Notes: generated by a model not told the origin, from the letters alone. 64,000 nt of DNA from Smithellaceae bacterium (GCA_049514435.1 JBEKVB010000003.1:72131-136130), one strand, 5' to 3'. Positions 4,451 through 60,358 are shown, counted from the stretch's first letter. Program-made: numbers and translations.

Positions 4451-5590
4451 ATGTTGACCAAAGAAGATATTATTGCGGAAGCCAAACGGCTGGGATTTGC
4501 CGATATCGGTTTCACTGACGCGGAGCCTTTTTCCTCTCAAAAAGAATATTTGCTGGCGCATCAGGAAGAGTATGGCTGGACAGAGGCTGCCGGTTTCAGT
4601 TTGCTTGCCGGAACGGATCCCAAAAACATCCTCCCTAATGCAAAATCCATAATCGTACTGTTGGAGTCTTATTTCGAAGAAGCGTTTCCGCTCAAAATGG
4701 AACGTCATTTCGGCCGCTGTTATCATAATGATGATCGGGTTACTAAAGATGGTCTGGCGCTTAAAGTCAAAGCCTTTCGTCAATTCCTCAAGGCGAACGA
4801 CATGGACTCCAAGGTGCCGCCCCACATGCCTCACCGTCTTTCAGCCGCGCGAGCCGGATTAGGGACTTTCGGCAATAACTGCGTTTTTTACGCACGGCGT
4901 GTTGCCCGCGCCAGTTCGTTTGTGTTTCCCATCGCCATTTTAATTGATGCTGAATATCCTCCCGATGAACCGACTATTGCCATCGGTTGTCCGGAATGGT
5001 GCCGTAATGCCTGCGTGGCAGCGTGTCCTACGCACGCGCTCAAAGGAGGTGGGAAGATTGATCCTCACCGCTGCATCTCTTATTTGACATATTATGGCGA
5101 AGGACTCACGCCCCTTGAACTCCGCGAACCCATGGGCATGTATGTGTACGGATGTGATCGCTGTCAGAATGTTTGTCCCCGCAATACCCCCTGGATGGCC
5201 GAAGAAAAGTCTCCCCATGCTAAAGTAGCGGCCAAGGCCGCAAATTTCGATCTGTCCTGCCTCCTACATATGGACAAGCCATACTTCGAGCAGAAGATAT
5301 GGCCGCACATGTTCTATATGTCTGCAGATGATCTCTGGCGCTGGAAGATGAATACGGCTCGCGCCATGGGCAATACTCTCAAACCTGTTTACGTTAAAGA
5401 CCTCATCCGGGCATTCCAAGAAAATTCCGATGAACGCGTAAAGAGTATGATCGTGTGGGCACTAGGCCGTATTGGCGGAAGCCAGGCCAAAACCGCTCTG
5501 AAAAAGTTTCTCCAGGATAGTGCGGGCAAGGTAAAAGAAGAAATCACACAGGCTATTGAAGCATCCGAAAGCAGCATGCTCAGCCGCTAA
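4451..5590 (+). CDS. queG: tRNA epoxyqueuosine(34) reductase-like Fe-S protein
   Basis: QueG-type N-terminus MLTKEDIIAEAKRLGFADIGFT. Two 4Fe-4S motifs (CPEWCRNACVAACP, CDRCQNVCP). C-terminal HEAT-like repeats. Confidence 0.82.
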   Translation: MLTKEDIIAEAKRLGFADIGFTDAEPFSSQKEYLLAHQEEYGWTEAAGFSLLAGTDPKNILPNAKSIIVLLESYFEEAFPLKMERHFGRCYHNDDRVTKDGLALKVKAFRQFLKANDMDSKVPPHMPHRLSAARAGLGTFGNNCVFYARRVARASSFVFPIAILIDAEYPPDEPTIAIGCPEWCRNACVAACPTHALKGGGKIDPHRCISYLTYYGEGLTPLELREPMGMYVYGCDRCQNVCPRNTPWMAEEKSPHAKVAAKAANFDLSCLLHMDKPYFEQKIWPHMFYMSADDLWRWKMNTARAMGNTLKPVYVKDLIRAFQENSDERVKSMIVWALGRIGGSQAKTALKKFLQDSAGKVKEEITQAIEASESSMLSR

Positions 5591-21627: not shown

Positions 21628-22179
21628 TTACAATCCCAAATCTCCTGCTACTCCCTTCATCGCTTCCAAGCCAAGCTCAATAAATGCATCCAATTCCAAA
21701 CCGATCTCACTGCACTTTGCGATCTGCTCTCGATTCGCGCCCGCCGCAAAGCGCTCTTCTTTGAACCGCTTGCGAATAGATTTGGCTTCCACGGAGGCCA
21801 GCTTTTTATCGGGACGAATTAGCGCTCCGGCAGTGATGAGCCCGGTCAAAGGATCGGCGCAAAAGAGGGCTTTATCCATCAGCGACATACAGGGCTCTCC
21901 GTGCGCTTCGTTGTGGACGAGAATTGCACGACAGATAGCTTCACTTGCGCCCAACTGTTTTGCCATTTCCGCCCCTGGCTTACTGTGGACTTTCAAATCG
22001 GCATGGGTCAGCTCAACATCGATATCGTGAAGCAGACCCGCCAGCCCCCACTCATCTTCGTTTTCGTTGAACCGCCGGGCAAGCGCGCGCATAATGGCTT
22101 CCACAGCCAGCATATGCTTTATGAGGTTTTCATTCTTAACGTTTTCTCTGATGGCTTTCAGTGCCGTTTCCCGATCCAT
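21628..22179 (-). CDS. HD-domain phosphohydrolase
   Basis: 183 aa with H...HD motif (LLHDIDV) and downstream His/Asp residues. Immediately downstream of abfD. Confidence 0.8.
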   Translation of the reverse strand: MDRETALKAIRENVKNENLIKHMLAVEAIMRALARRFNENEDEWGLAGLLHDIDVELTHADLKVHSKPGAEMAKQLGASEAICRAILVHNEAHGEPCMSLMDKALFCADPLTGLITAGALIRPDKKLASVEAKSIRKRFKEERFAAGANREQIAKCSEIGLELDAFIELGLEAMKGVAGDLGL

Positions 22180-22206
22180 AAGTGCCTTTCTATTGTTCTT
22201 TGCTCC

Positions 22207-24956: not shown

Positions 24957-25133
24957 TTATACCTCTTGGGATGGTAGATGACTGTTGGTAAAAGCCAGCC
25001 CCCACTCTTCTTCATTTTCAGTGAACCGCCGGGCAAGCGCCCGCATAATGGCTTCCGTAGCCAGCATATGCTTGATCAGGTTTTCATTCTTCACATTTTC
25101 TTGGATGGCTTTCAGTGCCGTTTCCCGATCCAT
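24957..25133 (-). pseudogene. truncated duplicate of the HD-domain gene (first ~47 codons)
   Basis: Translates MDRETALKAIQENVKNENLIKHMLATEAIMRALARRFTENEEEWGLA. This is near-identical to the N-terminus of 21628..22179. It then diverges and stops. Confidence 0.85.
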
Positions 25134-25192
25134 AAGTTCCTCTGCCCAATGAGGTAGTTTTGGTTATTCTGTGACCAGTCTAAAAAAATAGA
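25121..25192 (-). repeat. promoter/leader repeat R1, copy a
   Basis: TTTCCCGATCCATAAGTTCCTCTGCCCAATGAGGTAGTTTTGGTTATTCTGTGACCAGTCTAAAAAAATA. Near-identical copies at 36266-36335 and 42238-42312. Confidence 0.85.
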
Positions 25193-25259
25193 GGCGTCCC
25201 CATTATTTCTCTTTTTCGAAATTTGGAAAAATTAACCGGAATGTTATTTGGCAAAAGGT

Positions 25260-26456
25260 CTATATATTTTCCCTGTTAATGTGCGCGACTTTGGCAACCG
25301 GGAAGCCGTTAAAGTCCGTGGCCGAGGCTAAAGTGTAAGCGCCAATATTTTCCGCGTAAAGCAAATCGTCAATTTGCAAATCTTCCGGCAGTTCATCAGC
25401 CAGTGAGATTGTATCAAAAGCGTCGCAGGTCGGTCCAAAAGTGGCACAAAGTTTGAGTTCGCCATCTTTAAAAGCGTGGAGCGGGTAATGCTGGTGGTCA
25501 TAAACCTGGCCGGAAAAAGTATGATACACGCCATCATCAAGATAATAACAAGTTTTGCCGTCGCGAATGGATTTGCCAATAATTTTTGTCACCAAGGTGC
25601 AGGCTGTGGCCACCATAAATCGGCCAGGTTCGGCAATAACCTGGATGTTGTCTTTGCCGAACAAGCGTTTAATTTCCAAATTCAATTTTTTAGCCAAAGC
25701 AGAAAATGATTTTACATCCGGTGTGTATTTAACCGGAAACCCGCCGCCAATATCCAAAACTTTTTTCTTTTTGCCCTCTTTATCCGTAAAACCAATTTCA
25801 AAATTCCGCAAAGCAACTTCCTTCAAAATAGAATGCGTAAAATTTAGCCCTTGCAAATAGTTGTCAAAATTATTGCATTGACTGCCCACGTGAAAACTAA
25901 TGCCTTCCACATCCAAACCCATGCCAATGGCCTCGGCAATTAGATCCACGGCTTCGCCGGGATGCGCGCCAAATTTGGAAGACAGCTCCACCATACTTCC
26001 GGTGTTGGGCACGCGAATGCGTAAAATTAGCCCTACGTCCGGCGCGCGTTGCTTGATTTTTTTCAGTTCCTCAATATTGTCAAAAGTTACCAAAATTTTG
26101 TACGGGTTTAATTTTGTCAAAACTTTGAACGGTTTAATAGTGTTGGCGTAAATAATTTTGTCCCAAATAAAATCTTGGCGTTCTTTGTCCGGCCAGGTTT
26201 CAATATTTTTATAAATAAGCTTGAATTCGTAAATTGAAGCCACGTCAAAGCTAGAGCCAAGGTCAAACATGGTTTTAATTATCTCAGGATTGGAATTAGC
26301 CTTAACCGCAAAATACGGTTGCACATCCGGCAATTTTTCACGGAATTCCTTAAAATTGTTGCGCAGGACTTCGTGGTCAACCACAAACAGCGGCGTGCCG
26401 TTTTTAGCAGCCAATTCCTGCAAAAGTTGTTTCCTGGTCTCAGTCATAGAGTTCAA
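25260..26456 (-). CDS. PLP-dependent ornithine/arginine/lysine decarboxylase (alanine-racemase fold, ODC-like)
   Basis: PLP-lysine motif PYFAVKANSNPEI, GGGFP, 398 aa. Confidence 0.85.
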   Translation of the reverse strand: MNSMTETRKQLLQELAAKNGTPLFVVDHEVLRNNFKEFREKLPDVQPYFAVKANSNPEIIKTMFDLGSSFDVASIYEFKLIYKNIETWPDKERQDFIWDKIIYANTIKPFKVLTKLNPYKILVTFDNIEELKKIKQRAPDVGLILRIRVPNTGSMVELSSKFGAHPGEAVDLIAEAIGMGLDVEGISFHVGSQCNNFDNYLQGLNFTHSILKEVALRNFEIGFTDKEGKKKKVLDIGGGFPVKYTPDVKSFSALAKKLNLEIKRLFGKDNIQVIAEPGRFMVATACTLVTKIIGKSIRDGKTCYYLDDGVYHTFSGQVYDHQHYPLHAFKDGELKLCATFGPTCDAFDTISLADELPEDLQIDDLLYAENIGAYTLASATDFNGFPVAKVAHINRENI

Positions 26457-26682
26457 ATTAAATATTTTTAAATGGTGCTTGACATAGCAATTTCAATATC
26501 AGATCTTTTTATATTTTCAAGTAAATTGAAACTCATCCATTTAGGGCAATCTTGAAACCGACACGATCCGGGTACGTTTTTTCTTCACCACCCTTGCGTC
26601 TTAGTTTTTGACTTGTCAGTCCTGATCCTTTTGTGATTATTTTATTATAATTAATTGATTCGGGCATACTTTTTATAATTAT

Positions 26683-28134
26683 TTATGGAATAAACCGGAA
26701 GTTTTCAAATTGCCAAACGTCGGCAGTGGGAGTGTTCGCTGGGTTTTCTTTAAAATAGACTACGCGGTTTTTAATGGGAGTCCAGTTCGAGGCCTTGGAA
26801 ATAAAATTGCCTAAATAAGGTTTAGCAATATCCAGTACAAAGTCGTGCGGTAAATCATCGGGTAAATTCAATCCCCTTTTCGGGTTTTCTATCATCCAAA
26901 GTACTGCGCTGATAACCCCGAGCGCGACCTGCAAAGTTGTGGCATTTTGTCCTGGTGCCAGCCTTCTGGCTTCTTCTATGGAAAGATCGCTGCCTGTCCA
27001 CCAGGAAGTGTATTCATGGCCCATAAGCAAAGCGCCTAAGATATCCGCGCCAGTAGTAATTTCATCGCCCATAATTCTTAATTTTGGCGGCAAAACATAA
27101 TTTCTGCCGCGAAGTTCGCAAATGGAAGACAAAGTTTCGTGGCAAGGCATGTATGCGTAATGCACGGTGGGACGGAAAACGGCCTTTTCTTCTTCCCAAA
27201 CTGTAAGTCGATCTGATAATCCAAAAGCTTCGCCATGGCGGATAACCATGCCCACAATTTCCTGGTCTGGAATCCAAGACCTGACCCAGGTGTTCATACC
27301 CATTTGCGCCAAAGCGATTTGGTTTTTTGGGCCATATGGTGGAACATGCGCTAGGTTCGGAAGTTTTTGCTCATGTGTACCCCAGCCCATTTCCGCTGGC
27401 GCTGTGCCTTCTTCCCGAAGGCCTTCTATGCTCCAGGTGCCCACGAATTCATCCACTTCCTTGGGGCGATTAGTAATTTGCGTGTCGCGCTCGCTGCAAT
27501 GAATGACTTTGACCTTTAGTTTTTGGGCAAGCAAATCAAATTTTCGGGATTTGATTAATTCTTCCATTTCTTTGTCTTTCACGGTTACCTTGCCATCAGC
27601 TATCATTTTATTTGCAATATCAATCAGGCCCTGTTTTACAAAATGTGAAATCAGCCCTGGATTAGCGCCATGGTCAACCACTGCACTGGTGGAGTCTTTT
27701 GGCCAGTCTTTGATCATTTCGCGGAGTTTCATTTGCCGCCAGTACAAAGATTTTTCAAACGGACTGTCTTTGTGTATCCCTTCTAAAGAATCCCAAACCT
27801 CAACTGAAGTATTTATGTACAAAATATTATTGTCATGGCACCAGCCAATAATATCATTGGCGCCAATATTCCAGGCCAAATCTATAATCAGGCCGCCATT
27901 GTCAGTGTATTTGGCAAGCTCTTTGCCCATATTTTCCAGGGTAACGCGGTTTCGGACAAATTGTACACCTTTATCAGTAAATTTCTTTAAACTTTGGACT
28001 TTGTCTTCAAAATCCATAACAGTGACATTTTTCGGGTCCACTTTCAAATGCTCAAAAAGAATTGGCAAAGTGCATTGCGAAACCGAGCCATAGCCGATAA
28101 TTAAAATTTTGTGGTCAAATTTTTTCTTAGTCAT
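26683..28134 (-). CDS. hss: homospermidine synthase
   Basis: 483 aa. N-terminal NAD fold KILIIGYGSVSQCTLPIL. Saccharopine-dehydrogenase-like architecture typical of bacterial HSS. Adjacent to the decarboxylase. Confidence 0.8.
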   Translation of the reverse strand: MTKKKFDHKILIIGYGSVSQCTLPILFEHLKVDPKNVTVMDFEDKVQSLKKFTDKGVQFVRNRVTLENMGKELAKYTDNGGLIIDLAWNIGANDIIGWCHDNNILYINTSVEVWDSLEGIHKDSPFEKSLYWRQMKLREMIKDWPKDSTSAVVDHGANPGLISHFVKQGLIDIANKMIADGKVTVKDKEMEELIKSRKFDLLAQKLKVKVIHCSERDTQITNRPKEVDEFVGTWSIEGLREEGTAPAEMGWGTHEQKLPNLAHVPPYGPKNQIALAQMGMNTWVRSWIPDQEIVGMVIRHGEAFGLSDRLTVWEEEKAVFRPTVHYAYMPCHETLSSICELRGRNYVLPPKLRIMGDEITTGADILGALLMGHEYTSWWTGSDLSIEEARRLAPGQNATTLQVALGVISAVLWMIENPKRGLNLPDDLPHDFVLDIAKPYLGNFISKASNWTPIKNRVVYFKENPANTPTADVWQFENFRFIP

Positions 28135-28269
28135 TTTTTTGATCCGTATCCGCCAAATAATAGTGTTCGAGTTTGTTTTGTTTTTTGATAAGATATTGTT
28201 TTTACATGGTTGAACTATAGGAATTACGGTCTTGTGTCAAGGAAATCTTGGCCACAAAATGTAGGTTCG

Positions 28270-28415
28270 GATTATGTTTATTACCGATTGAAATGTTGTA
28301 TGAATTGGGAAAATAAGAAAAACAACATTACAGGAAGAAGTGCTTACTGACTACACCTTTTTATTAACAATTGCCAAGTTTAAATTGAATCGTGGATTAC
28401 CAGTTGAAAGAGAGT
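28270..28415. repeat. cassette-boundary repeat R4, copy A
   Basis: TATTAC-CGA-TTGAAA at 28279 and GATTAC-CAG-TTGAAA at 28395 (116 bp apart). They flank the core ACAGGAAGAAGTGCTTACTGACTACACC. Confidence 0.85.
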
Positions 28416-28515
28416 AAGGCTTAGCGTCACCTGCCGTGAATATCGATGTGTAACTGACTATCCTTACGGAGTCAGCGACGGATCTCCAAAAAGTAAGAAG
28501 ATAAAAATCCAAAAT

Positions 28516-29295
28516 CTAAGGTGTCCTGGCGAGGCGGAACCCTAAGTCGAAGTACCTTAAGTCCGGATAATTATAGTCGCGAACCGCCGTGCGGCAGCGC
28601 CTGGGAAAGTTACTCCAGCTACCGCCACGATTGACCCGGTAAGAGCCTGATGATGGTCCAGCAGGATCCGTAACATGACTTGATGGATATTCTTCATACC
28701 AGTCTTGGATCCACTCCAAGACGTTTCCCGACATGTCGTACAATCCTAGATCGTTCGGTCTCTTCTGACCCACGGGGTGGGTTTTACCTCCGGAGTTTGC
28801 TCCATACCAAGCATAATCTCCCAGGTTCGACTCGCTGGCTGTCCCCGCATATTCTTCCTGCTTACCGCCGCTTCTGGCAGCATATTCCCACTCGGCCTCC
28901 GTAGGCAGGCGGTACTTGTCTGTCCCTTCCATACTGTTCAGCTTTTTGATAAAATCCTGGACGTCGTTCCAAGAGACCTCCTCCACCGGGCAGTCATCGC
29001 CGCAACTGCTGAAATGGGAAGGATTACTCCCCATGACCCATTTCCACTGTCCCTGTGTCACCATCGTAGTCTGCATGTAAAAACTCCGGCTGATAGTTAC
29101 CTGGTGCTGTGTTTCGTTGCCATATCTTCCCAGTTCACTGGAGGGGCTGCCCATTGTGAACGTCCCCGACGGGACCAGTACAAACTTCGCTCCCAGTGTG
29201 GGACTGGTAAAAACCTTCCCCACTGGTGTTTCGCTCATTGCCGGGGAACAAAGAAAGGTTAAAACAAGAAAGATGGAAACGATAACTTTGCGCAT
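28516..29295 (-). CDS. secreted formylglycine-generating-enzyme (SUMF1/EgtB) family protein
   Basis: Signal peptide. Motifs RSGGKQ..YAWY, GNVLEWIQDWY and RVNRGGSW. Confidence 0.85.
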   Translation of the reverse strand: MRKVIVSIFLVLTFLCSPAMSETPVGKVFTSPTLGAKFVLVPSGTFTMGSPSSELGRYGNETQHQVTISRSFYMQTTMVTQGQWKWVMGSNPSHFSSCGDDCPVEEVSWNDVQDFIKKLNSMEGTDKYRLPTEAEWEYAARSGGKQEEYAGTASESNLGDYAWYGANSGGKTHPVGQKRPNDLGLYDMSGNVLEWIQDWYEEYPSSHVTDPAGPSSGSYRVNRGGSWSNFPRRCRTAVRDYNYPDLRYFDLGFRLARTP

Positions 29296-29344
29296 ATTAC
29301 CTCCATTTATACGTTTACATTGTTATCATAATTACCGAGGAAAT

Positions 29345-29490
29345 AACATCAATGATTACGTTTTGAAGTCTTGCATTTTTGTCTAGGTTTGATTTTTGAA
29401 TAGTTTCGGAAGAAGTACTTACTGACTTCACCTACAAACAAACGACTTTGAAAAATCTTGATGTTGTGAATTACGATTTGAAATAGAGTA
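29345..29490. repeat. cassette-boundary repeat R4, copy B
   Basis: GATTAC-GTT-TTGAAG at 29354 and AATTAC-GAT-TTGAAA at 29469 (115 bp apart). Core TCGGAAGAAGTACTTACTGACTTCACCTAC. Confidence 0.8.
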
Positions 29491-29573
29491 ACACGCAGCT
29501 CAGCGAGGGTCGTTTCAATTTGGCAGCAATATGAGAAATTCAATTTACACAGATTAGTTTACGGTCTCGAGTA

Positions 29574-29771
29574 TCATTCTTTATTTCTACAAATATCATA
29601 TAAAATATTACACTTTTGTTCACAAGCTTGATTCAATCCAATTGTCTCTGGGCAATCCCACTTACATGATTGTTTCTCAGTTACGCATTTTATAGTTGTG
29701 CATGAACAACATAACATTGACATTACTAATAACAATACAATTCCTATGATTTTAAAGATACTATTATGCAT
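29574..29771 (-). CDS. small secreted Cys-rich protein
   Basis: 65 aa with a signal-like N-terminus and 8 Cys in the mature part. No recognised family. Confidence 0.45.
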   Translation of the reverse strand: MHNSIFKIIGIVLLLVMSMLCCSCTTIKCVTEKQSCKWDCPETIGLNQACEQKCNILYDICRNKE

Positions 29772-29835
29772 ATTGATTCTTTCCTCCTTTATCCAATTAG
29801 ATACTAAACTTCAGTAGGTGACCTGCCCCTGATAC

Positions 29836-29940
29836 TTTTACCACATGTTAAGTTAGATTTCAGCAGTATTTTGATTATTTCCAATTGAAATGTTGCATGT
29901 AGGAGTTGAATTAGAAAATCAGGACTTCAGGAAGTTATAC
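29836..29940. repeat. cassette-boundary repeat R4, copy C (partial)
   Basis: TTTACCACATGTTAAGTTAGATTTCAGCAG plus GATTATTTCCAATTGAAATGTTGCAT. The core is truncated after CAGGAAGTTA. Confidence 0.75.
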
Positions 29941-29985
29941 TTAAAAAAATCAATGAACGTAAGCACGCTTTATGTATTAAGTTTC

Positions 29986-30810
29986 CTAAGTAGCATCTAT
30001 AATATTATTGGATATAAATTTTCTTCCAATATCATAGATAAGTAAATTTTCATTTTCATACATTGCCACGACCCTTGCCCATCCTGCACTCCTTTTTGCA
30101 AGCTTGATTGGAAAACATGCTACCTTGAAACCAAATGGCTTGGGTAAGGTATCAAGATTTGCGAGTTTCTCTATATGGCAATATTCTTTTTTAATACCCG
30201 CCTTGTGAGCTGTCCATAATATGCTTTTATCATGGGTTCTGCCAAATTCCTCTTTGATTGCATTGAAGGGCCTGTCCCAACCCCATGCGTCGATACCCAT
30301 TACACGGCACCCATGTTCAATCAACCAGAGCGTCGACTCTTCCGTCATGCCGCAACCAACCATGAAATACTCCTGTTTGCCCCACAACTTATCCGCTCCG
30401 GTCTGGATCAGTACTATATCCCACGGTTTGAGGGTATATCCAATTTTTATAAGAGCGTTTTGTATATCATCAATGGAAATACCGGTTCCCTGAGGTTTGT
30501 CCCGGAAATCAAGGACAACACCATCATGAAAAAACCAGTCAAGCGGCATTTCATCGATTATCTTAGCTTTCTTATTTTCAGATAATGGTGAATAATGCCA
30601 CGGAGCGTCAACGTGTGTACCCGAATGAGCGGATAACGATACAGCGTCATCAGCCCAGCCCAGACCGTCCGCCATGTCTTCCTTTTTTGCATCGAAAACC
30701 AATTCAATTAGTGGCAGACTGGAATTATGCGCTTTATGTTCCACTTTCACTGGTTGTGGTTCGCTGGGACTGTCTTCAGTTGGTATGCTCAAATCATATA
30801 TTTTGATCAT
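29986..30810 (-). CDS. cyclase-family protein (kynurenine formamidase-like)
   Basis: HxGTHxDxPxH motif HSGTHVDAPWHY. 274 aa. Confidence 0.85.
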   Translation of the reverse strand: MIKIYDLSIPTEDSPSEPQPVKVEHKAHNSSLPLIELVFDAKKEDMADGLGWADDAVSLSAHSGTHVDAPWHYSPLSENKKAKIIDEMPLDWFFHDGVVLDFRDKPQGTGISIDDIQNALIKIGYTLKPWDIVLIQTGADKLWGKQEYFMVGCGMTEESTLWLIEHGCRVMGIDAWGWDRPFNAIKEEFGRTHDKSILWTAHKAGIKKEYCHIEKLANLDTLPKPFGFKVACFPIKLAKRSAGWARVVAMYENENLLIYDIGRKFISNNIIDAT

Positions 30811-30883
30811 TTAAATTCTCCTCATAGTACATTAATAATTTGATCGATGGAGATTCAAGATTTCTTTGACCTACTATTGGTTT

Positions 30884-31062
30884 TTTTACCACAAGTTAAT
30901 TTAGACTTCAGCAGTTTTTTAATGATTACCAATTGAAAGGTTGTATAAATATCAAGACTGACGAGTTGCGGATAACAGGAAGAACTGCTTACTGAAAACA
31001 CCTACAAAGAAACAATTGTCAGTTTTAAAATGATTGAGGATTACGGATTGAAAGGTGCTATA
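30884..31062. repeat. cassette-boundary repeat R4, copy D
   Basis: TTTACCACAAGTTAATTTAGACTTCAGCAG. GATTAC-CAA-TTGAAA at 30924 and GATTAC-GGA-TTGAAA at 31039 (115 bp apart). Core ACAGGAAGAACTGCTTACTGAAAACACCTAC. Confidence 0.85.
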
Positions 31063-31071
31063 TAATACAAA

Positions 31072-31779
31072 TTAATAATCGTATATTTTCCATTCTCCTT
31101 GATCTTGGGAAAAAGTAAGAGGAAAAGCAAATTCTTGACCATTTTGGATAGTAAAGATTTCATATCTGACCCTATCCCTGAGCCATTGCTCTCTAAAAGG
31201 CAACAAATGCAACTCTTGATTTTGGGAAGCTACTTCTTTTAACTTATCTAGAGGTAAAGCAGAAAACATTTTTCTGTGTCTTTCTTTTGACCAGTGATGA
31301 AAATAGGTCAAAGCTGTCTCAATATCACCATTTTTTAATGCTTCACGCATTTTTTTGAATATTAATCTAAGTTCAGAATCTAAAGTTTTAATTTCTTGTT
31401 CGGTTAGCTGTGATAAATTTTTGGGCTCTATAGATTTTTTTAGCCATTCCCAATTATCATTTACAAGTTTTTCTTGTTGTTTAAGATTGTCTAATTCTTT
31501 TTGAGATAGTTTCTTTTTTGCCTCATTCAATTTCGTAGTTAAGTCTTTTAAATGATTTTTTTCTTGTTCTGATAAATTTTCTGTTATTTCTTTTTTAGTG
31601 CAGGCTGTGATCATTAATTGTTCTGCCGAAAGTCCATTGACAGGAAATTCTTTTTTCATGCTTTGAGATATATAATCTTTACAAATAAAAGTCTGTCTTT
31701 GAATAAAATCATTTTCACTTGCGAAAGCTATATTAACCATTAAAGTTAAAATTATAATACTTGTTGATAATAACTTCAA
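31072..31779 (-). CDS. secreted coiled-coil protein, unknown function
   Basis: 235 aa with signal peptide and a Lys/Glu-rich helical middle. No recognised catalytic motif. Confidence 0.55.
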   Translation of the reverse strand: MKLLSTSIIILTLMVNIAFASENDFIQRQTFICKDYISQSMKKEFPVNGLSAEQLMITACTKKEITENLSEQEKNHLKDLTTKLNEAKKKLSQKELDNLKQQEKLVNDNWEWLKKSIEPKNLSQLTEQEIKTLDSELRLIFKKMREALKNGDIETALTYFHHWSKERHRKMFSALPLDKLKEVASQNQELHLLPFREQWLRDRVRYEIFTIQNGQEFAFPLTFSQDQGEWKIYDY

Positions 31780-31819
31780 AATATCCTCCTGACCATCTGA
31801 TTCTTTTTGAAAAGGATTT

Positions 31820-31965
31820 TTTAACGATTACCGTTTGTAACCTAGCATAAAATTGAAAATTTGAAAAATAAGGATTACAGGAAGAAAGAGATTATTTGTT
31901 TAACCTACAAGTCCACACATGCTACGTGAAAAATAGATTGAAGATTACCATTTGAAACACTTGTA
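31820..31965. repeat. cassette-boundary repeat R4, copy E (diverged)
   Basis: GATTAC-CGT-TTGTAA at 31826 and GATTAC-CAT-TTGAAA at 31943 (117 bp apart). Diverged core ACAGGAAGAAAGAG...AACCTAC. Confidence 0.7.
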
Positions 31966-32072
31966 ATGACTAACTCAACCTCATCTGAAATCTGTCAACT
32001 GAAGAAATACCCGCTATTAAATAATATGACATAGTAGAATACTCAAGAATTGCTGGCAGAAATATTGATAAT

Positions 32073-32110
32073 AAAAGAGGCAAAACCATTTCTGGTTCTG
32101 CCTCTTTTTA
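32073..32110 (-). terminator. intrinsic terminator (T-runs on both strands)
   Basis: AAAGAGGCAAAACC/GGTTCTGCCTCTTT hairpin flanked by T-runs. Downstream of the 32233 gene. Confidence 0.65.
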
Positions 32111-32232
32111 AAGTCATCAACGTAAGCATTCACTTTAAGGCAATGTATATTTAATCTTTGACTTATTATAAGCTTGCCCAACTCCTTCAACAATTAAACT
32201 ACGTGCCTCGCTTTTCATTTCCTTAGCCTCCC

Positions 32233-33318
32233 TTAGGCAACACTGCTCTTTGCTTTGACCTGGTTTGCCCATCTCTCGGCCTCGATCCTCTGTAGGGTGT
32301 CCTGTAAAAAATCTTTAGGAGGCGCTTCCATCCCTGACTTGGCCACCATTGATATGGCTTCCGTCGGACAGGTCGAAACGCAGAGTCCGCATCCGATGCA
32401 TCTTCCTTCGATCATCTCAGAGGAATCCTCTCCCTCTTTAATTGCGGCCATCTGGCATCGTTCAATGCATTGACCGCAGGCAGAACAGAGCTCGGAATCT
32501 ATTTTAGCCTGGTAATAGGATTGGACCATAGCCGCAGGCCGAGGCATCAGCTTTGCATATTTGAGGATTGGACAACAACAGGGGCAACAACAACAAATGG
32601 CTGATAACTCTTGGCTGTTGGTTGGAGACAATACCAGGGCAGATTCCTCTGCCAGGTCAAGGACTCTTAAAACTTCCTCTTTACTGATCGCTCTTGCCCA
32701 TTTGTTGTCAATATAAAACTGGGCCAAGTCTCCAAACGCGAGGCAAGTTTCCTGTGGTCGGTCACACTTCTTGCCAAGAAGCCCTTGCTCTTTGCGGCAG
32801 ATGCACTGTTGTAAAGAAAAGGTCTTTTGCCCTTCTACCAATTCTCGGACCCGATTGTATGTCTCCACCGCATGTGCTGTCCCAACTGCCGATTCTACCG
32901 GAATGACACGCATTTGTTTGGTTTTAACGGGCAAAAAAGACATTCCGAGATAGGGCAGGTATTCTTCAAACATCTGGCAGAATTCCTTGTCCAGGTATTT
33001 GAGCTGAAATTCGTAAACACCAACCATGAACTGAAATGCCTGGTAGAGCGCTTTATTTCCTTTTCTGACCCTGAAGATAAGACCCTTCTGGGCCATTTCC
33101 TCAAGCCTCCGGGTAAGCTCTGACTCCTCAAGGCCGACCCGGGCGGCGATAGCCGGAATTTCTTCCGGTTCGCTCTTTAGTTTCACAGTAAGCTCTGCCT
33201 GTTCTGGCGAAAAGAGCTTTTTCAAGATTCTGATCTCAACCCCAGTCGGCGTTGCAGGGTATCCTACTGGCAGAGTATCCATAAATTCCCTCAGCCTCAC
33301 ATAGACGTCTTCGCCCAT
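32233..33318 (-). CDS. 4Fe-4S dicluster protein with N-terminal wHTH-like domain
   Basis: CSACGQCIERC and CIGCGLCVSTCP ferredoxin motifs plus a CCCCPCCCP cluster. 361 aa. Confidence 0.75.
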   Translation of the reverse strand: MGEDVYVRLREFMDTLPVGYPATPTGVEIRILKKLFSPEQAELTVKLKSEPEEIPAIAARVGLEESELTRRLEEMAQKGLIFRVRKGNKALYQAFQFMVGVYEFQLKYLDKEFCQMFEEYLPYLGMSFLPVKTKQMRVIPVESAVGTAHAVETYNRVRELVEGQKTFSLQQCICRKEQGLLGKKCDRPQETCLAFGDLAQFYIDNKWARAISKEEVLRVLDLAEESALVLSPTNSQELSAICCCCPCCCPILKYAKLMPRPAAMVQSYYQAKIDSELCSACGQCIERCQMAAIKEGEDSSEMIEGRCIGCGLCVSTCPTEAISMVAKSGMEAPPKDFLQDTLQRIEAERWANQVKAKSSVA

Positions 33319-33418
33319 ATCCTTCCTCCGTTTCCTAGATCAAACTAGCGATGAATCATCGTTAAGCAGATTAGTTCTTAATGCCTTTGATAAAATTTAT
33401 ATATTGTGTTGCTGTTTC

Positions 33419-33715
33419 CTACGGTTTTTCCATCATAGGAACATGGCCGCAATCTTTGATGATCACAGTTTTGTGATTTTTTAATCCCTTTTCGAAAACC
33501 GATACGCTGGAAACATCAATGAGTTTATCCTGATTGCCCCAAAGAATTAAAGCTGGTGCTTTTATCTTCGGCAGATCTTTTTCGAGAGAGAAACTATCGG
33601 GATAGATTTCTTTGCCCTCCTTTTCATAAAACTGGCGATTGGCTAAAAAAGTTTTAATCATTACTTTGTCGATAGGATAGGGTACACTCGGCAGATTAAC
33701 AAAAACGATTGGCAT
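33419..33715 (-). pseudogene. C-terminal fragment of an alpha/beta hydrolase
   Basis: Only the C-terminal part is present (ILWGNQDKLID...DCGHVPMMEKP, catalytic His region). The nucleophile elbow is absent. Starts 4 nt after sodC. Confidence 0.65.
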
Positions 33716-33719
33716 CGTT

Positions 33720-34241
33720 TCACTGTATCACGCCGCAGGCAACTCGGGCACCGCCGCCGCCGAGAGCTTCGGGATAGTCTGAATAATTGTCGCTGCCCGC
33801 ATGAACCATCAATGATCTCCCCTTAAGGTCTGAGACTTTCAGCCGCGGTGAGACAACAGGCAGAGTTGCCTTGCCGTCAGTCCCTGCATAAAGGGCGGGT
33901 AGGTCTCCCAGGTGCCCTTTTCCGTATGGCCCTTCATGCTTGCCGGTTTTAAGGGGGTCGTAGTGCCCACCTGCGGCAAGAGCCGCAACATGCTTGCCCT
34001 CTTTCATGGCATGATTGCAATCAGCATTTTGATGTACATGAAATCCATGCATGCCGGGAGAGAGATCGCTTAGTTGAGGGGTGAGAATAAGGCCGTACTG
34101 GCTATCGGTGGCAGTAACGGTGCCAATGTACTTGCCGATACCCTGATCAGTTACCAGATTTACCTTTATTACCATTTCATCAGCCAGGGCATAGCCTGCA
34201 AAAGACATAACAATGAAAAGTATAAATAGTGTTTTCTTCAT
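33720..34241 (-). CDS. sodC: periplasmic Cu/Zn superoxide dismutase
   Basis: Signal peptide. Motifs GFHVHQNADC, GHLGDLP and GGGGARVACGVI. Confidence 0.93.
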   Translation of the reverse strand: MKKTLFILFIVMSFAGYALADEMVIKVNLVTDQGIGKYIGTVTATDSQYGLILTPQLSDLSPGMHGFHVHQNADCNHAMKEGKHVAALAAGGHYDPLKTGKHEGPYGKGHLGDLPALYAGTDGKATLPVVSPRLKVSDLKGRSLMVHAGSDNYSDYPEALGGGGARVACGVIQ

Positions 34242-34400
34242 CTTTTCCTCCTTTTAATCAGTGCTTTCGATAAATCGTGAAATCAGGTTCTTATTTAATT
34301 TTATAAGCTTTTGCTTTCTAACATGAAAAATATAGTAAAGTTCTATTGGTATGTCAATTATTTTTCCCCTGACGGTGTTTTTGATAATTTGATAAGATAT

Positions 34401-34590
34401 TGCTTACTGTCCGAAAAAATCATCTCATTGTGGATAACAATCGATAAAGATTACCATTTGAAAGAAAGTATGCCCATGAAAAATCCCAAATGCTCCCTTA
34501 CAGGAAGAAGTGCTTACTGACTACACCTACTAAGTTTCAGTTTTACGTGGCTCTTAAAATTGAAGATTACTGGTTGTAAGGTGCTAACAT
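34401..34590. repeat. cassette-boundary repeat R4, copy F
   Basis: GATTAC-CAT-TTGAAA at 34449 and GATTAC-TGG-TTGTAA at 34565 (116 bp apart). Core ACAGGAAGAAGTGCTTACTGACTACACCTAC. A partial extra core TGCTTACTGT sits at 34401. Confidence 0.85.
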
Positions 34591-34680
34591 TTAATATACG
34601 AACTTCACTTTCCCCTTCCCCGATGATTTGAATATCGTAAAAGAAACTATTCTACCAGTTTTCTACAATTGTATTTCCCA

Positions 34681-35844
34681 TTAATAAATAAATATCTTAA
34701 CTTCTTTCATAAACGAATATGTTAATATTTTTCCGTCTTTTGTGCGAATCTTTACCATGTCACCGCTAAAACTGATTACTTGTCCTTCAATGACATTCCC
34801 GTTCTGTAATTCTATTCCCTTTAGCCCCTCTATTGCTTGGTAATGCTTTTCTGAATCCACCGGACGATTGGTAACTGAGATATCCTTCTTAGGAACTTTT
34901 ACTTTATATTTGCGTAGTCGCGTACTGTTGTTGTCCTTCTTAAATTGATTTAAAAGGGCAATCACAGAATCAGCATCGCCCTCGTTATAAGTCTTCAGCA
35001 GTGAATCTCTCAAACGCCTTGGTTGTTTTTGTATCCACGCCACAATTCTTCCTGAATCCCTTAAATTATCAAAGTCTGGATGAGCGCTTCTTATGGTATT
35101 AAAATGTTTTTCTTTAGCAATTCTTTCTAAATCTTCATTTGAGGTTGGACCAGTTGGTTGATCTGGTACTGGAGCTGGTGCAGGTGCCGGTTGCGCAACG
35201 GGTGCTTCGACTTTAGGAGTCGCTACCGATACTAGCTCTTCCCTTTTGTTTAGGTTTGCAATTGTGAACAGAATGCCAGCGAGTACGATAATAATTAGTA
35301 TAGATATAATGACAGCTTTATTAAGAGTTTTAGCTTTTAGCTTATTTTCTTCTATATGAGGTTTGCCAACTGCTCTTTGCTGTGGTGATAGTCTCGAAAG
35401 AGTTTCTGCTTTTACCTTTCTTTCTTCTATGTGAGGTGTGCTAACTGCACTTTGCTGTGGTGATGGTCTCGAAAGGGTTTCTGTTTTTACCTTTGTTTCC
35501 TCTATGTGAGGTGTGCTAACTGCACTTTGCTGTGATGATGGTCTCGGAGGTGGTTCCTCGGTTATCTTTGAAACTTCTCGCGGCGGAACTTTTTGTTCTA
35601 ATATATTTTGTTTGGCAACTTTAACCGGAGGTAAGGCCATAGTGCAGTGCCAGCATTTTATTGCATCATCTTGAAGCTCTCCATCACAGAATGGACATTT
35701 TTTCATAGAAACTTTTGGCGGCGGAACTTTTTGTTCTGACGTATCTTGCTTGGCAGCTTTAACCTGAGGTAAAGTCATAGTGCAGTGCCGGCATTTTATT
35801 GCATCGTCTTGAATCTCTCCATCACAGAATGGACATTTCTTCAT
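34681..35844 (-). CDS. single-pass membrane protein with duplicated N-terminal zinc ribbons and a triple internal repeat
   Basis: Two copies of KKCPFCDGExQDDAIKCxHCTM, three copies of SRPSPQQSAVSTPHIEExKVK, one TM helix and a conserved-looking C-terminal domain. Likely start is MKKCPF. Confidence 0.65.
   Translation of the reverse strand: MKKCPFCDGEIQDDAIKCRHCTMTLPQVKAAKQDTSEQKVPPPKVSMKKCPFCDGELQDDAIKCWHCTMALPPVKVAKQNILEQKVPPREVSKITEEPPPRPSSQQSAVSTPHIEETKVKTETLSRPSPQQSAVSTPHIEERKVKAETLSRLSPQQRAVGKPHIEENKLKAKTLNKAVIISILIIIVLAGILFTIANLNKREELVSVATPKVEAPVAQPAPAPAPVPDQPTGPTSNEDLERIAKEKHFNTIRSAHPDFDNLRDSGRIVAWIQKQPRRLRDSLLKTYNEGDADSVIALLNQFKKDNNSTRLRKYKVKVPKKDISVTNRPVDSEKHYQAIEGLKGIELQNGNVIEGQVISFSGDMVKIRTKDGKILTYSFMKEVKIFIY
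35330..35550. repeat. intragenic ~66-bp tandem repeat (3 copies)
   Basis: Repeated CGAAAG(A/G)GTTTCTG(C/T)TTTTACCTTT...TCTATGTGAGGTGTGCTAACTGCACTTTGCTGTG units. They encode the PQQSAVSTPHIEE repeats. Confidence 0.8.
35582..35844. repeat. intragenic ~125-bp tandem duplication (zinc-ribbon module)
   Basis: 35582-35706 and 35720-35844 are near-identical (CATAGTGCAGTGCC.GCATTTTATTGCATC.TCTTGAA.CTCTCCATCACAGAATGGACATTT). Confidence 0.8.
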
Positions 35845-35961
35845 CGCTGCTCCTTTAAAACACAAAACCCTGCGCTCTTTTAATAAACTTAGTTTTTCCA
35901 GATGTGTTGAACATCATTATAGCACATTATTTTTTTTAAAAAAGGAGGGAAACAGAGCATC

Positions 35962-36025
35962 CTTTATTACGGGTTGAAATATTGTGTGAATTGGAAAAAA
36001 CATAAAAACAACATTGTAGGAAGTT
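35962..36025. repeat. cassette-boundary repeat R4, copy G (partial)
   Basis: TATTAC-GGG-TTGAAATATTGTGTGAATTGGAAAAAACATAAAAACAACATTGTAGGAAGTTA. Closely matches the left half of copy A, then breaks off. Confidence 0.8.
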
Positions 36026-36082
36026 AGATTCAGAGATCGCTTTTTTAGAATTGGGATCGAAGCGACGCCGCGCAGCGCCCGC

Positions 36083-36265
36083 ATAATAATGAGACTCGAC
36101 GACTATAGGAGTCGTTAGTCGTAGTGAGACTCGCTGAAAACGAACAAAGTGAAGTTTGAAGAGGAAGTCGAACTATCCAATAGCCAAAGGCTATTGGGAA
36201 TTATCCCAGAAGCGTAGTACCCTGAAGGGCATCTACGACGACGTGGGATTTCTACCTTATGTAAT
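36083..36265 (-). repeat. modular hairpin array R2, short copy
   Basis: Modules begin with TAATGAGAC/TAGTGAGAC. Includes the perfect hairpin CCAATAGCC-AAA-GGCTATTGG and the nested stem CCCA..CGTAG..CCC-TGAA-GGG..CTACG..TGGG. Collinear with 41917-42237. Confidence 0.8.
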
Positions 36266-36335
36266 TTTCCCGATCCATAAGTTCATCCACCCAATGAGAT
36301 GGTTTTGATTATTCTGTAACCAGTCTAAAAAAAAT
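36266..36335 (-). repeat. promoter/leader repeat R1, copy b
   Basis: Same sequence as 25121-25192 and 42238-42312. On the minus strand it contains AGGA-N5-ATGGATCGGGAAAATTACATAAGGTAG (MDRENYIR-stop). Confidence 0.85.
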
Positions 36336-36498
36336 GAATCGCAGCCGTATTCCTTTATCAAACGTCAATGGTAAAGATTTGACCCCACTTTCACTCCATA
36401 ACCGGATAGTTTATGTGCCTCTTTCAACTGTTCAAAAACAACTTGACAAGACGCACCTGATGGCGTTACTACAATATATAAACTGGAATGATTCCGAA

Positions 36499-42237: not shown

Positions 42238-42312
42238 TTTTCCCGATCCATAAGTTCCTCTGCCCAATGAGATGGTTTTGATTATTCTGCAACTAGTCTA
42301 GAAAAAATAGAA
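42238..42312 (-). repeat. promoter/leader repeat R1, copy c
   Basis: TTTTCCCGATCCATAAGTTCCTCTGCCCAATGAGATGGTTTTGATTATTCTGCAACTAGTCTAGAAAAAATAG. Confidence 0.85.
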
Positions 42313-60282: not shown

Positions 60283-60358
60283 GTCCCCATCGTCTAGAGG
60301 CCTAGGACACGGGCCTTTCACGCCTGTAACTGGGGTTCGACTCCCCATGGGGACGCCA
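60283..60358 (+). tRNA. tRNA-Glu (anticodon UUC), CCA encoded
   Basis: Acceptor stem GTCCCCA/TGGGGAC, anticodon loop CTTTCAC, T-arm GGGGTTCGACTCCCC, 3' GCCA. Confidence 0.95.

Follow-up and report, generated by a model that had tools for sequence, protein, structure and literature searches.

Gene units bordered by an apparently undescribed two-module repeat in the variable regions of Smithella-like genomes

In integrons, and in clusters of attC sites lacking integron integrases (CALINs), genes without functional ties stand in one direction as units of gene size, with members of a single repeat family at their borders. We describe an array with this layout from a Smithellaceae bacterium (GCA_049514435.1, JBEKVB010000003.1:72131-136130; these 64,000 nt are called the window throughout), in which seven copies of a repeat separate minus-strand genes of unrelated function. 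The likeness to integrons extends to strain differences at the repeat borders, to half-sites at the array ends, and to the invasion of the site by other mobile elements. The site differs, however, in being bipartite and built from direct repeats, without the R''/R' or L''/L' palindrome, and 70-130 nt on each side of the crossover stay with the neighboring genes; the units also have their own promoters and no IntI, and copies of the repeat occur at many loci.

A second parallel is found in tandemly accreted integrative and cis-mobilizable elements, whose internal joints carry both arms (attP-like), whose ends carry one arm, and whose units lack an integrase of their own. A comparable logic is recognizable at larger scale in repeats of the window that we term R1 and at a tRNA-Lys gene in a related locus, L160. 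The two modules of our repeat, which we name L and R, differ from such joints in that they have no core with a proven overlap region, are separated by a 16-55-nt linker, and come with no integrase that we could find. Small gene modules bounded by short conserved recombination sites also make up the pdif/dif (XerC/XerD) modules of Acinetobacter, which have no dedicated recombinase adjacent and are shuffled between replicons (PMC6449649, PMC13141974). The pdif sites are 28 bp long (XerC-6-XerD), alternate in orientation, and reside on plasmids, whereas the sites described here are ~70-250 nt long, direct, chromosomal, and unlike dif. Repetitive extragenic palindromic (REP) sequences, including bacterial interspersed mosaic elements (BIMEs), REP doublets (REPINs), and the associated RAYT transposases, are likewise abundant, lineage-specific, structured, and modular, but they are 20-40-nt palindromes, usually in inverted pairs, without a tie to gene orientation (PMC3116915, PMC2817692, PMC3733652). 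The L and R modules exceed these in length, keep a strict orientation to genes, include a promoter or lie next to one, and travel with genes. Finally, putative mobile promoters are highly similar promoter regions that precede unrelated genes within and between genomes (PMC3575422); here, in contrast, most of the shared sequence precedes the promoter, its distal end is sharp and conserved, a partner module stands at gene 3' ends, and arrays are formed.

Within the window, the box ATTAC-N3-TTGWAR has 12 exact matches, all on the plus strand between 28280 and 35979 and none elsewhere, and 18 matches when one mismatch is allowed, against 6.1 expected and with none of 100 shuffles as high. A 31-nt core occurs three times at no more than three mismatches, where zero occurrences are expected. 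Repeat finding, together with a profile built on the full copies, delimits seven copies, A to G, between 28262 and 36023:

Copy A, 28262-28437, plus strand: full junction, boxes at 28280-28293 and 28396-28409
Copy B, 29339-29508, plus strand: full junction, boxes at 29355-29368 and 29470-29483
Copy C, 29861-29934 (29820-29934 with the promoter-bearing extension 29820-29860), plus strand: L module only, ending in GGAAG followed by TTATAC
Copy D, 30909-31066 (30868-31066 with a left extension as in C), plus strand: full junction, boxes at 30925-30938 and 31040-31053
Copy E, 31816-31958, plus strand: full junction with degenerate center and linker, boxes at 31827-31840 and 31944-31957
Copy F, 34439-34607, plus strand: full junction, boxes at 34450-34463 and 34566-34579
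Copy G, 35953-36023, plus strand: L module only, array end, terminating in GGAAG followed by TTAGATTC

The box counts, shuffles, and profile search bear out the seven same-strand copies of the initial annotation, and its observations that the repeats are direct rather than inverted, that the gene units it listed all lie on the minus strand, and that C and G are truncated at one shared point of the core hold as well: both copies end directly after GGAAG, with TT as the next bases. Its fixed spacing of 115-117 bp between boxes is found in copies A, B, D, E, and F; because linker length varies among subfamilies, this spacing is a trait of short-linker variants (the 16-nt v1 and the similar v5) and not of the family. 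The single element of ~150 bp that it proposed gives way to a different anatomy. Each copy is two independent modules side by side, and these modules are found more often alone than joined.

In the plus orientation of the window, the L module consists of the box, ~38 nt, and an invariant end, CAGGAAG(AA), and lies just upstream of the promoter of the gene to its left, whereas the R module starts with (T/A)CACCTAC, continues through ~30 variable nt to AATTGAGGATTACnnnTTGAAAGAGAGTAAC, and trails the 3' end of the gene to its right. Read in the gene direction, the 3' trailer R' (GTTACTCTC-TTTCAAnnnGTAATC, ~30 variable nt, GTAGGTG) follows a stop codon, a linker of 16-55 nt separates it from L' ((TT)CTTCCTG, a stem of variable sequence, TTTCAAnnnGTAATC), and L' stands ahead of the next gene, whose sigma70-type promoter lies 0-70 nt beyond it. 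In copy A, for instance, the L end GGAAG at 28337 is followed by a 16-nt linker and then the R module; the L part belongs to hss and the R part to the gene for an FGE-sulfatase protein. Copy F likewise joins the L part of the SodC unit to the R part of a zinc-ribbon gene. The 16-nt linker of the window type is AAGTGCTTACTGAnnn, and other subfamilies have either a different linker of 17 nt or one of 40-55 nt. Profile matches, after nearby halves were joined, comprise 180 L-only, 66 R-only, and 104 joined copies. An R module on one side of a unit and an L module on the other were observed together in 108 of 190 cases, with 103 expected, so the two occur in statistical independence.

The CAGGAAG(AA) end of L is better conserved than the interior of the module. 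Next to it, the TTGAAA half of the box pairs with the bases before CAGGAAG to form a stem whose sequence differs by subfamily (AATGTTGT/ACAACATT, ACAAAGCAT/ATGCTTTGT, and GAAGTC/GACTTC). Over 52 distinct copies, 65.8% of cells are paired, compared with 35-47% in slid controls, and the covariation score is 0.20 versus 0.08-0.13, with 0 of 500 shuffles as high; the signal is real but modest. A stem on the R side is present in one subfamily only, RNAalifold returned no consensus structure over all L or all R halves, and the R module holds a GTAG/CTAC motif. The boxes match the consensus for integration host factor (IHF), WATCAANNNNTTR, at seven of nine positions.

Comparison of the window with related loci shows gene units exchanged at module borders, the joining point lying between CAGGAAG and the linker or R module. 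Each module stays with its own gene, and L and R parts are found in free combination. L030 has the R part of copy F and the zinc-ribbon gene with another L part, L013 and L040 have the R part of copy E behind other L parts, and L027 has the L part of copy D with a different linker and right side; the R part of copy B (CACCTAC from ~29427) moves together with the gene for a 65-aa Cys-rich peptide (p65). At six loci, one right side and its AAAAC linker variant stand behind five different L parts, which places the exchange point to the left of the linker. BLAST alignments give the same borders: L020 matches 29429-29934 at 99.4% identity, from CACCTAC to GGAAG; L041 matches 33712-34507, with one end at GGAAG; and identity with L160 ends at 28337. 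At least nine independent L-only copies stop at GGAAG, and L-only junctions abut unrelated DNA.

The unit of hss and its neighbor ODC illustrates this at the left end of the array. The block of hss, ODC, and L module (25217-28337) is 94-99% identical at the nucleotide level in eight metagenome-assembled genomes (MAGs; loci L160-L165, L167, and L183), with unrelated flanks in all of them, and to the right of 28337 identity with the eight genomes ceases; none of the other cargo genes of the window lies near hss in these genomes. Other genes common to the window and L161 are ~84-86% identical. Six relatives retain the hss L module at the orthologous position, and the p65, SodC, and zinc-ribbon units recur in other contexts. 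In L161, the hss L module is joined via a 9-bp microhomology to what in the window is the right flank of copy G, and we read this as the ancestral junction. Because of it, the 7.7-kb array looks like an insertion between GGAAG and TTAGATTC. The copy G junction with its flank is also present in L030. At the scale of a single unit, L026 differs from L009 by one extra unit, which encodes a 96-aa secreted protein, has its own promoter-like site (TTGACA-17-TATACT), and sits between two 95% identical L modules. Related genomes vary unit by unit exactly at the repeat borders, as the initial annotation had anticipated of a cassette array, and the identical gene order that would have spoken against such an array was not seen. 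One further candidate, L006, which had seemed syntenic to the hss side, was set aside because it has no hss and its similarity is that of the element itself.

These modules belong to a large and apparently undescribed two-module intergenic repeat family in the variable parts of Smithella-like Syntrophales genomes. A 22-base core pattern gave five true matches in MAGs and 35 among 37 metagenome loci; full elements were found in MAGs labelled Smithellaceae, "delta proteobacterium", Dehalococcoidia, and Prolixibacteraceae, and the 37 metagenome contigs come from peat, bog, and sediment, often with the match at the contig end. A pattern for the L half recovered more than 117 genome loci, mostly in Smithella, Syntrophaceae, or Syntrophales MAGs and often many per genome, among them no fewer than 12 contigs of Smithella SPRUCE_522 and four or more separate places on one 2.78-Mb contig (CAWEQT010000001.1). 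With a profile hidden Markov model (HMM), we collected ~350 copies in 168 loci. Spacing from copy to copy is gene-sized (quartiles 840, 1327, and 1985 nt), and copies are co-oriented within a locus, both orientations occurring in only 9 of 116 loci. The core-genome context is poor in the family, with 6 matches in 0.60 Mb around serA from 44 Smithella-like genomes. Annotated plasmid and phage collections gave no match, nor did IMG/VR with the core pattern; the IMG/VR set held one L module, on a prophage-like contig (L320:13871-13930, UViG_3300002821_000280), where it stands with its promoter extension just after a terminase large-subunit gene. Also on that contig are genes for ParB and a D5-type primase. 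Full-text literature searches turned up no account of such a repeat family, an absence that is no proof of novelty. Genome-wide scatter without relation to genes had been named as grounds for seeing a generic repeat here; the copies are indeed scattered over many loci, but with a strict relation to gene boundaries and orientation.

That relation is seen in the open reading frames (ORFs) around the copies, 205 of 286 of which (43 loci) are antisense to the plus orientation of the element, and this co-orientation upholds the earlier view that the repeats bound gene-sized units on one strand. Units comprise one to three genes, with a median length of 1327 nt, and reach 2-3 kb. Their cargo is diverse, with 244 Pfam families in 146 proteins, including large transporters, sensors, and enzymes. 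A promoter-like site lies within 60 nt past the L box in 75 of 240 copies, compared with ~30 in shuffles, and the excess fades past ~70 nt. With this enrichment and the promoter-like sites of the window itself, the genes cannot be called promoter-poor, as they had been; nor are the units promoterless, since sigma70-like promoters directly follow the L' box. The left block common to C and D was confirmed, and it is not peculiar to them: the same promoter-bearing extension is conserved at many loci and by inspection holds a promoter of this sigma70-like kind. Taken together, the predicted promoters and locus comparisons show the units as self-expressed gene modules, piled up co-directionally in flexible islands that differ between close relatives. 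The genes and signals of the array are as follows:

25260-26456, minus strand: ODC, part of the hss-ODC unit (25217-28337)
26683-28134, minus strand: hss (saccharopine-dehydrogenase-type), part of the hss-ODC unit (25217-28337)
28240-28235 (TTGACA) and 28219-28214 (TATAGT), minus strand: promoter-like site of hss, TTGACA-15-TATAGT
28516-29295, minus strand: FGE-sulfatase protein
29352-29325, minus strand: promoter-like site of the FGE gene, TTGATG-16-TATGAT
29574-29771, minus strand: p65
29986-30810, minus strand: cyclase
31072-31779, minus strand: gene for a 235-aa protein
32073-32108, minus strand: terminator-like hairpin with T-run, after the Fer4 gene and upstream of copy E
32233-33318, minus strand: Fer4/HTH (helix-turn-helix) protein
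33419-33715, minus strand: alpha/beta-hydrolase fragment
33720-34241, minus strand: SodC
34329-34357, minus strand: sigma70-like promoter of the SodC unit, TTGACA-17-TATATT, downstream of its L module
34681-35865, minus strand: zinc-ribbon gene

Several other functions for the modules were considered and rejected. A small ORF in the core shows wobble-like variation, yet its frame is not kept, GTG becomes GTA in several copies, and the stops differ. The L module is not itself a promoter, as it contains no conserved -35/-10, sigma54, or extracytoplasmic function (ECF) sigma pattern and promoters are found only past its end. Intrinsic terminators were rejected because the stems, rich in AT, lack a U-tract. 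Nor are the modules a known RNA family, since Rfam has no match at any repeat copy; within the array nothing reached gathering thresholds, and at E≤5 there were four sub-threshold chance matches, none on a repeat copy.

Among the cargo genes, the alpha/beta-hydrolase ORF is taken to be a gene fragment because only the C-terminal 98 aa of the fold are present; its counterpart beside SodC in L041 is a 143-aa ORF. The zinc-ribbon gene contains tandem repeats at 35323-35837, three of 75 nt (75-87% identity) and two of 138 nt (88%), the latter doubling the zinc-ribbon motif. The spacer between hss and ODC (26451-26682) is ~230 nt in the window and ~90 nt in L160; six related genomes show a 4-nt overlap of hss and ODC instead. 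Beyond the Smithella-like group, the hss protein has its closest relatives (65-82% identity) in MAGs of Patescibacteria, Methanosarcinales, and Omnitrophota (loci L166-L239), and this patchy spread suggests that the homospermidine-synthase-type gene was horizontally transferred.

The array lies within a larger island. Four direct R1 copies divide this part of the window into islands of 22.2-25.1, 25.1-36.3, and 36.3-42.2 kb:

22168-22185: R1 copy 1
25122-25200: R1 copy 2, left bound of the array island
36267-36340, plus strand: R1 copy 3, right bound of the array island
42240-42306: R1 copy 4

Their invariant core of 18-19 nt, TTTCCCGATCCATAAGT(T/G)C, derives from the start and leader of an HD-domain gene (21628-22179, minus strand). 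Copies 1 and 2 share the gene-side arm, copies 3 and 4 share another arm, and copies 2 to 4 share the right arm, a pattern that resembles attL-type and attP-type joints of islands putatively integrated in tandem at the 5' end of the HD-domain gene. L030 follows the window to the end of R1 and then jumps by 3.3 kb, and L161 lacks the 22.2-25.1-kb island, so that both differ from the window exactly at R1 repeats. R1 had been suggested to drive the whole array; it is instead a four-copy, att-like repeat that bounds larger islands, with no dedicated promoter role for the array. Beside the second R1 copy, at 24980-25170 on the minus strand, roughly the first 55 codons of the HD-domain gene are repeated as a pseudo-copy (MDRETALKAIQENVKNENLIKHML...), and ~36075-36100 has a shorter scrap of this gene. 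The noncoding stretch between copy G and R1 (36024-36266, minus strand) folds at -70.3 kcal/mol (z = -3.1 versus shuffles); some of this stretch is repeated to the left of the fourth R1 copy (42240), and Rfam gave no match to it. In L160 (9481-13644), hss, ODC, and the L module sit in an integrase-less island of ~4 kb that runs from tRNA-Lys(UUU) to a 48-nt repeat of the 3' half of the tRNA; L241 has the site empty (serA, tRNA, thioesterase), and in L258 and L240 serA likewise neighbors the thioesterase gene. The sole tRNA of the window is at 60283. Given these R1- and tRNA-bounded islands, transfer between genomes is explained by ordinary integrative islands, and the L and R modules structure their cargo.

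Motif and HMM searches of the window found no tyrosine recombinase, in keeping with the earlier statement that no integrase was in view. A proposed search for recombinases beside such arrays elsewhere did find Xer-like and phage-type enzymes nearby, but these use other sites. In L014, L020 (345-2492), L027, L030, and L038, the repeat contains a 2.1-kb element that encodes a tandem pair of Xer-like tyrosine recombinases (297 and 384 aa, both below the XerC, XerD, and IntI cut-offs). Recombinases in the related loci score 75-95 bits against an integron-integrase cut-off of 265 bits. Including L047:4943-7151 (72-86% amino acid identity) and L045 from 4230 onward (54-58%, inverted), the element exists in three diverged versions and in both orientations. 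Its flanks are constant: CACCTAC stands directly before CTATACGTAAC at one end and directly after GTTACGTATAG at the other, with 11-bp terminal inverted repeats (CTATACGTAAC), so that the element's own site consists of the 7-bp CACCTAC at the R start, framed by an 11-bp inverted repeat. The constant insertion point shows the R start in use as a tyrosine-recombinase crossover. As the enzyme of unit exchange the element was rejected, since its crossover is CACCTAC and unit exchange maps left of the linker, and for that reason it is best seen as a specialized invader. It is comparable to the insertion sequences (ISs) of the IS1202 family that target pdif, which are likewise specialized elements at a fixed position of the site (PMC10132070). 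Elsewhere, L028 carries a 279-aa recombinase as ordinary cargo, and in L110 a phage-type integrase and an Xre-like gene beside a tRNA lie 289 nt from an L-only junction. An integrase that seemed to lie behind the shared right side of L002, L024, and L028 proved to be an ORF of 34 aa; the real gene there encodes a 177-aa membrane protein in normal cargo orientation.

We propose that units are joined and lost through a trans-acting, strand-specific, site-specific enzyme that cuts directly after GGAAG, and we give this reading a probability of about 40%. Joining and loss would most likely be catalyzed by a site-specific recombinase or transposase supplied in trans, with the cut falling beside a structured site made up of box and stem. 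The conserved boxes would serve as putative protein-binding sites, arm-type or IHF-like. Internal junctions of L and R may then be attP-like joints of tandemly accreted, nonautonomous elements, with L-only and R-only copies as array ends, and transfer between genomes would ride on larger integrative islands, which R1 repeats delimit in the window and tRNAs elsewhere. Compared with lambda-type att sites, the window-type linker reads CAGGAA-GAAGTGC-TTACTG, and long-linker variants have no right arm; CAGGAA-N7-TTACTG was accordingly dropped as a universal core site. By inspection, the core agrees with the XerC arm of dif at only 5 of 11 positions, and all sites are direct.

Several observations weigh against this proposal. 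Because R and L occur independently around units, an obligatory two-ended element does not fit, and L-only is the commonest form. A third of the cells of the L stem are unpaired over the 52 copies, and folds of whole elements are no better than those of shuffles. RecA-type exchange with the same apparent breakpoints could be supported by the 20-30 nt that joined copies have conserved and by the near-identical L families of 60-80 nt, and the extra unit of L026 between its two similar L modules fits homologous recombination. No circular unit was seen, and none of the Xer-like or phage-type recombinases nearby, which use other sites, could be tied to the GGAAG border. On circularity we note L112, a 5081-nt contig with a 119-nt terminal direct repeat (1-119 and 4939-5057) that could be circular or a tandem repeat; besides a single L module, it carries a HicAB pair and a gene for a WD40-caspase.

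The same evidence might be explained without any dedicated cutting, if L is a portable upstream promoter element and R a 3' trailer, shuffled by homologous recombination and island transfer. We consider this possible although doubtful. It accounts well for the position of L always directly upstream of a promoter-like site, for the orthologous hss L module in six relatives, for the independence of R and L around units with a linker free to vary from 16 to 55 nt, and for the L026/L009 polymorphism between near-identical L modules, and a similar recurrence of promoters ahead of unrelated genes is on record (PMC3575422). What it leaves unexplained is the spread of hundreds of near-identical modules to unrelated genes. 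A CAGGAAG(AA) end that is more conserved than the module interior, and a stem that covaries, also count against it, as do L-only junctions abutting unrelated DNA, where there is no homology to recombine on, and a site-specific element that has the R start as its crossover.

It is improbable, in our judgment, that the modules are selfish nonautonomous elements mobilized by a single-copy transposase elsewhere, with the genes as bystanders, whether of the kind of miniature inverted-repeat transposable elements (MITEs), of REPINs and BIMEs, or of IS200/IS605 ends. High copy number with many loci per genome, matches often at contig ends, as expected of assembly-breaking repeats, and a strand-specific architecture with a subterminal stem by a sharp end and a GTAG/CTAC motif in R would all suit such elements, and REPs and REPINs behave in this way (PMC3116915, PMC2817692); for the IS200/IS605 comparison, the stem next to the sharp GGAAG end has modest support and the R-side stem is confined to its one subfamily. 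Yet the 44 full copies have no MITE-type terminal inverted repeats (mean longest inverted word between ends 5.41 nt versus 5.36 nt shuffled), and inverted pairs of the BIME or REPIN type were never seen, copies sharing one orientation in all but the 9 of 116 loci. Moreover, no bare-module insertion polymorphism between conserved genes appeared in 128 locus pairs, the modules travel with their genes, and no HUH transposase is among the 25 most frequent families listed for the 146 neighboring proteins.

The initial annotation had likened the array to integrons of the CALIN type. It has the integron-like trait of a co-oriented array whose content varies unit by unit between strains, but membership fails on motifs, hairpins, and promoters: in 28135-36100, neither strand has an R'' (RYYYAAC) and R' (GTTRRRY) pair 50-140 nt apart (0 versus a shuffled mean of 1.55), and single-stranded DNA folds of copies A, D, and F on both strands show no attC-type hairpin, with z from -0.83 to +0.92 and ends that never pair. 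A classical CALIN with an unusual attC and an IntI outside the window, despite the co-oriented array, unrelated cargo, and strain-variable content that speak for it, is thus extremely improbable, given also the direct repeats, the promoters, units of up to 2-3 kb and three genes, and nearby recombinases at 94.7 rather than 265 bits.

Taken at its widest, the proposal of a dedicated trans-acting enzyme would make this a previously unrecognized gene-capture system in syntrophic Deltaproteobacteria, in which promoter-carrying units with a bipartite, direct-repeat, and partly structured site would be excised and joined directly after GGAAG by a non-IntI enzyme acting in trans, forming integron-like arrays inside integrative islands. 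As a whole we hold this tentative and somewhat unlikely. Methanogenic carbon turnover in peat and sediments depends centrally on Smithella and related syntrophs, which are uncultured or difficult to grow. A repeat family of this kind, by which accessory genes are packaged into self-expressed units with marked exchange points, would account for the breaking of assemblies at these loci and for strain-level variation among MAGs, and it would provide a search key for the pool of accessory genes. Should there be a dedicated enzyme, the family would represent a second, mechanistically different answer to the problem that integrons solve, with cassettes that bring their own promoters.

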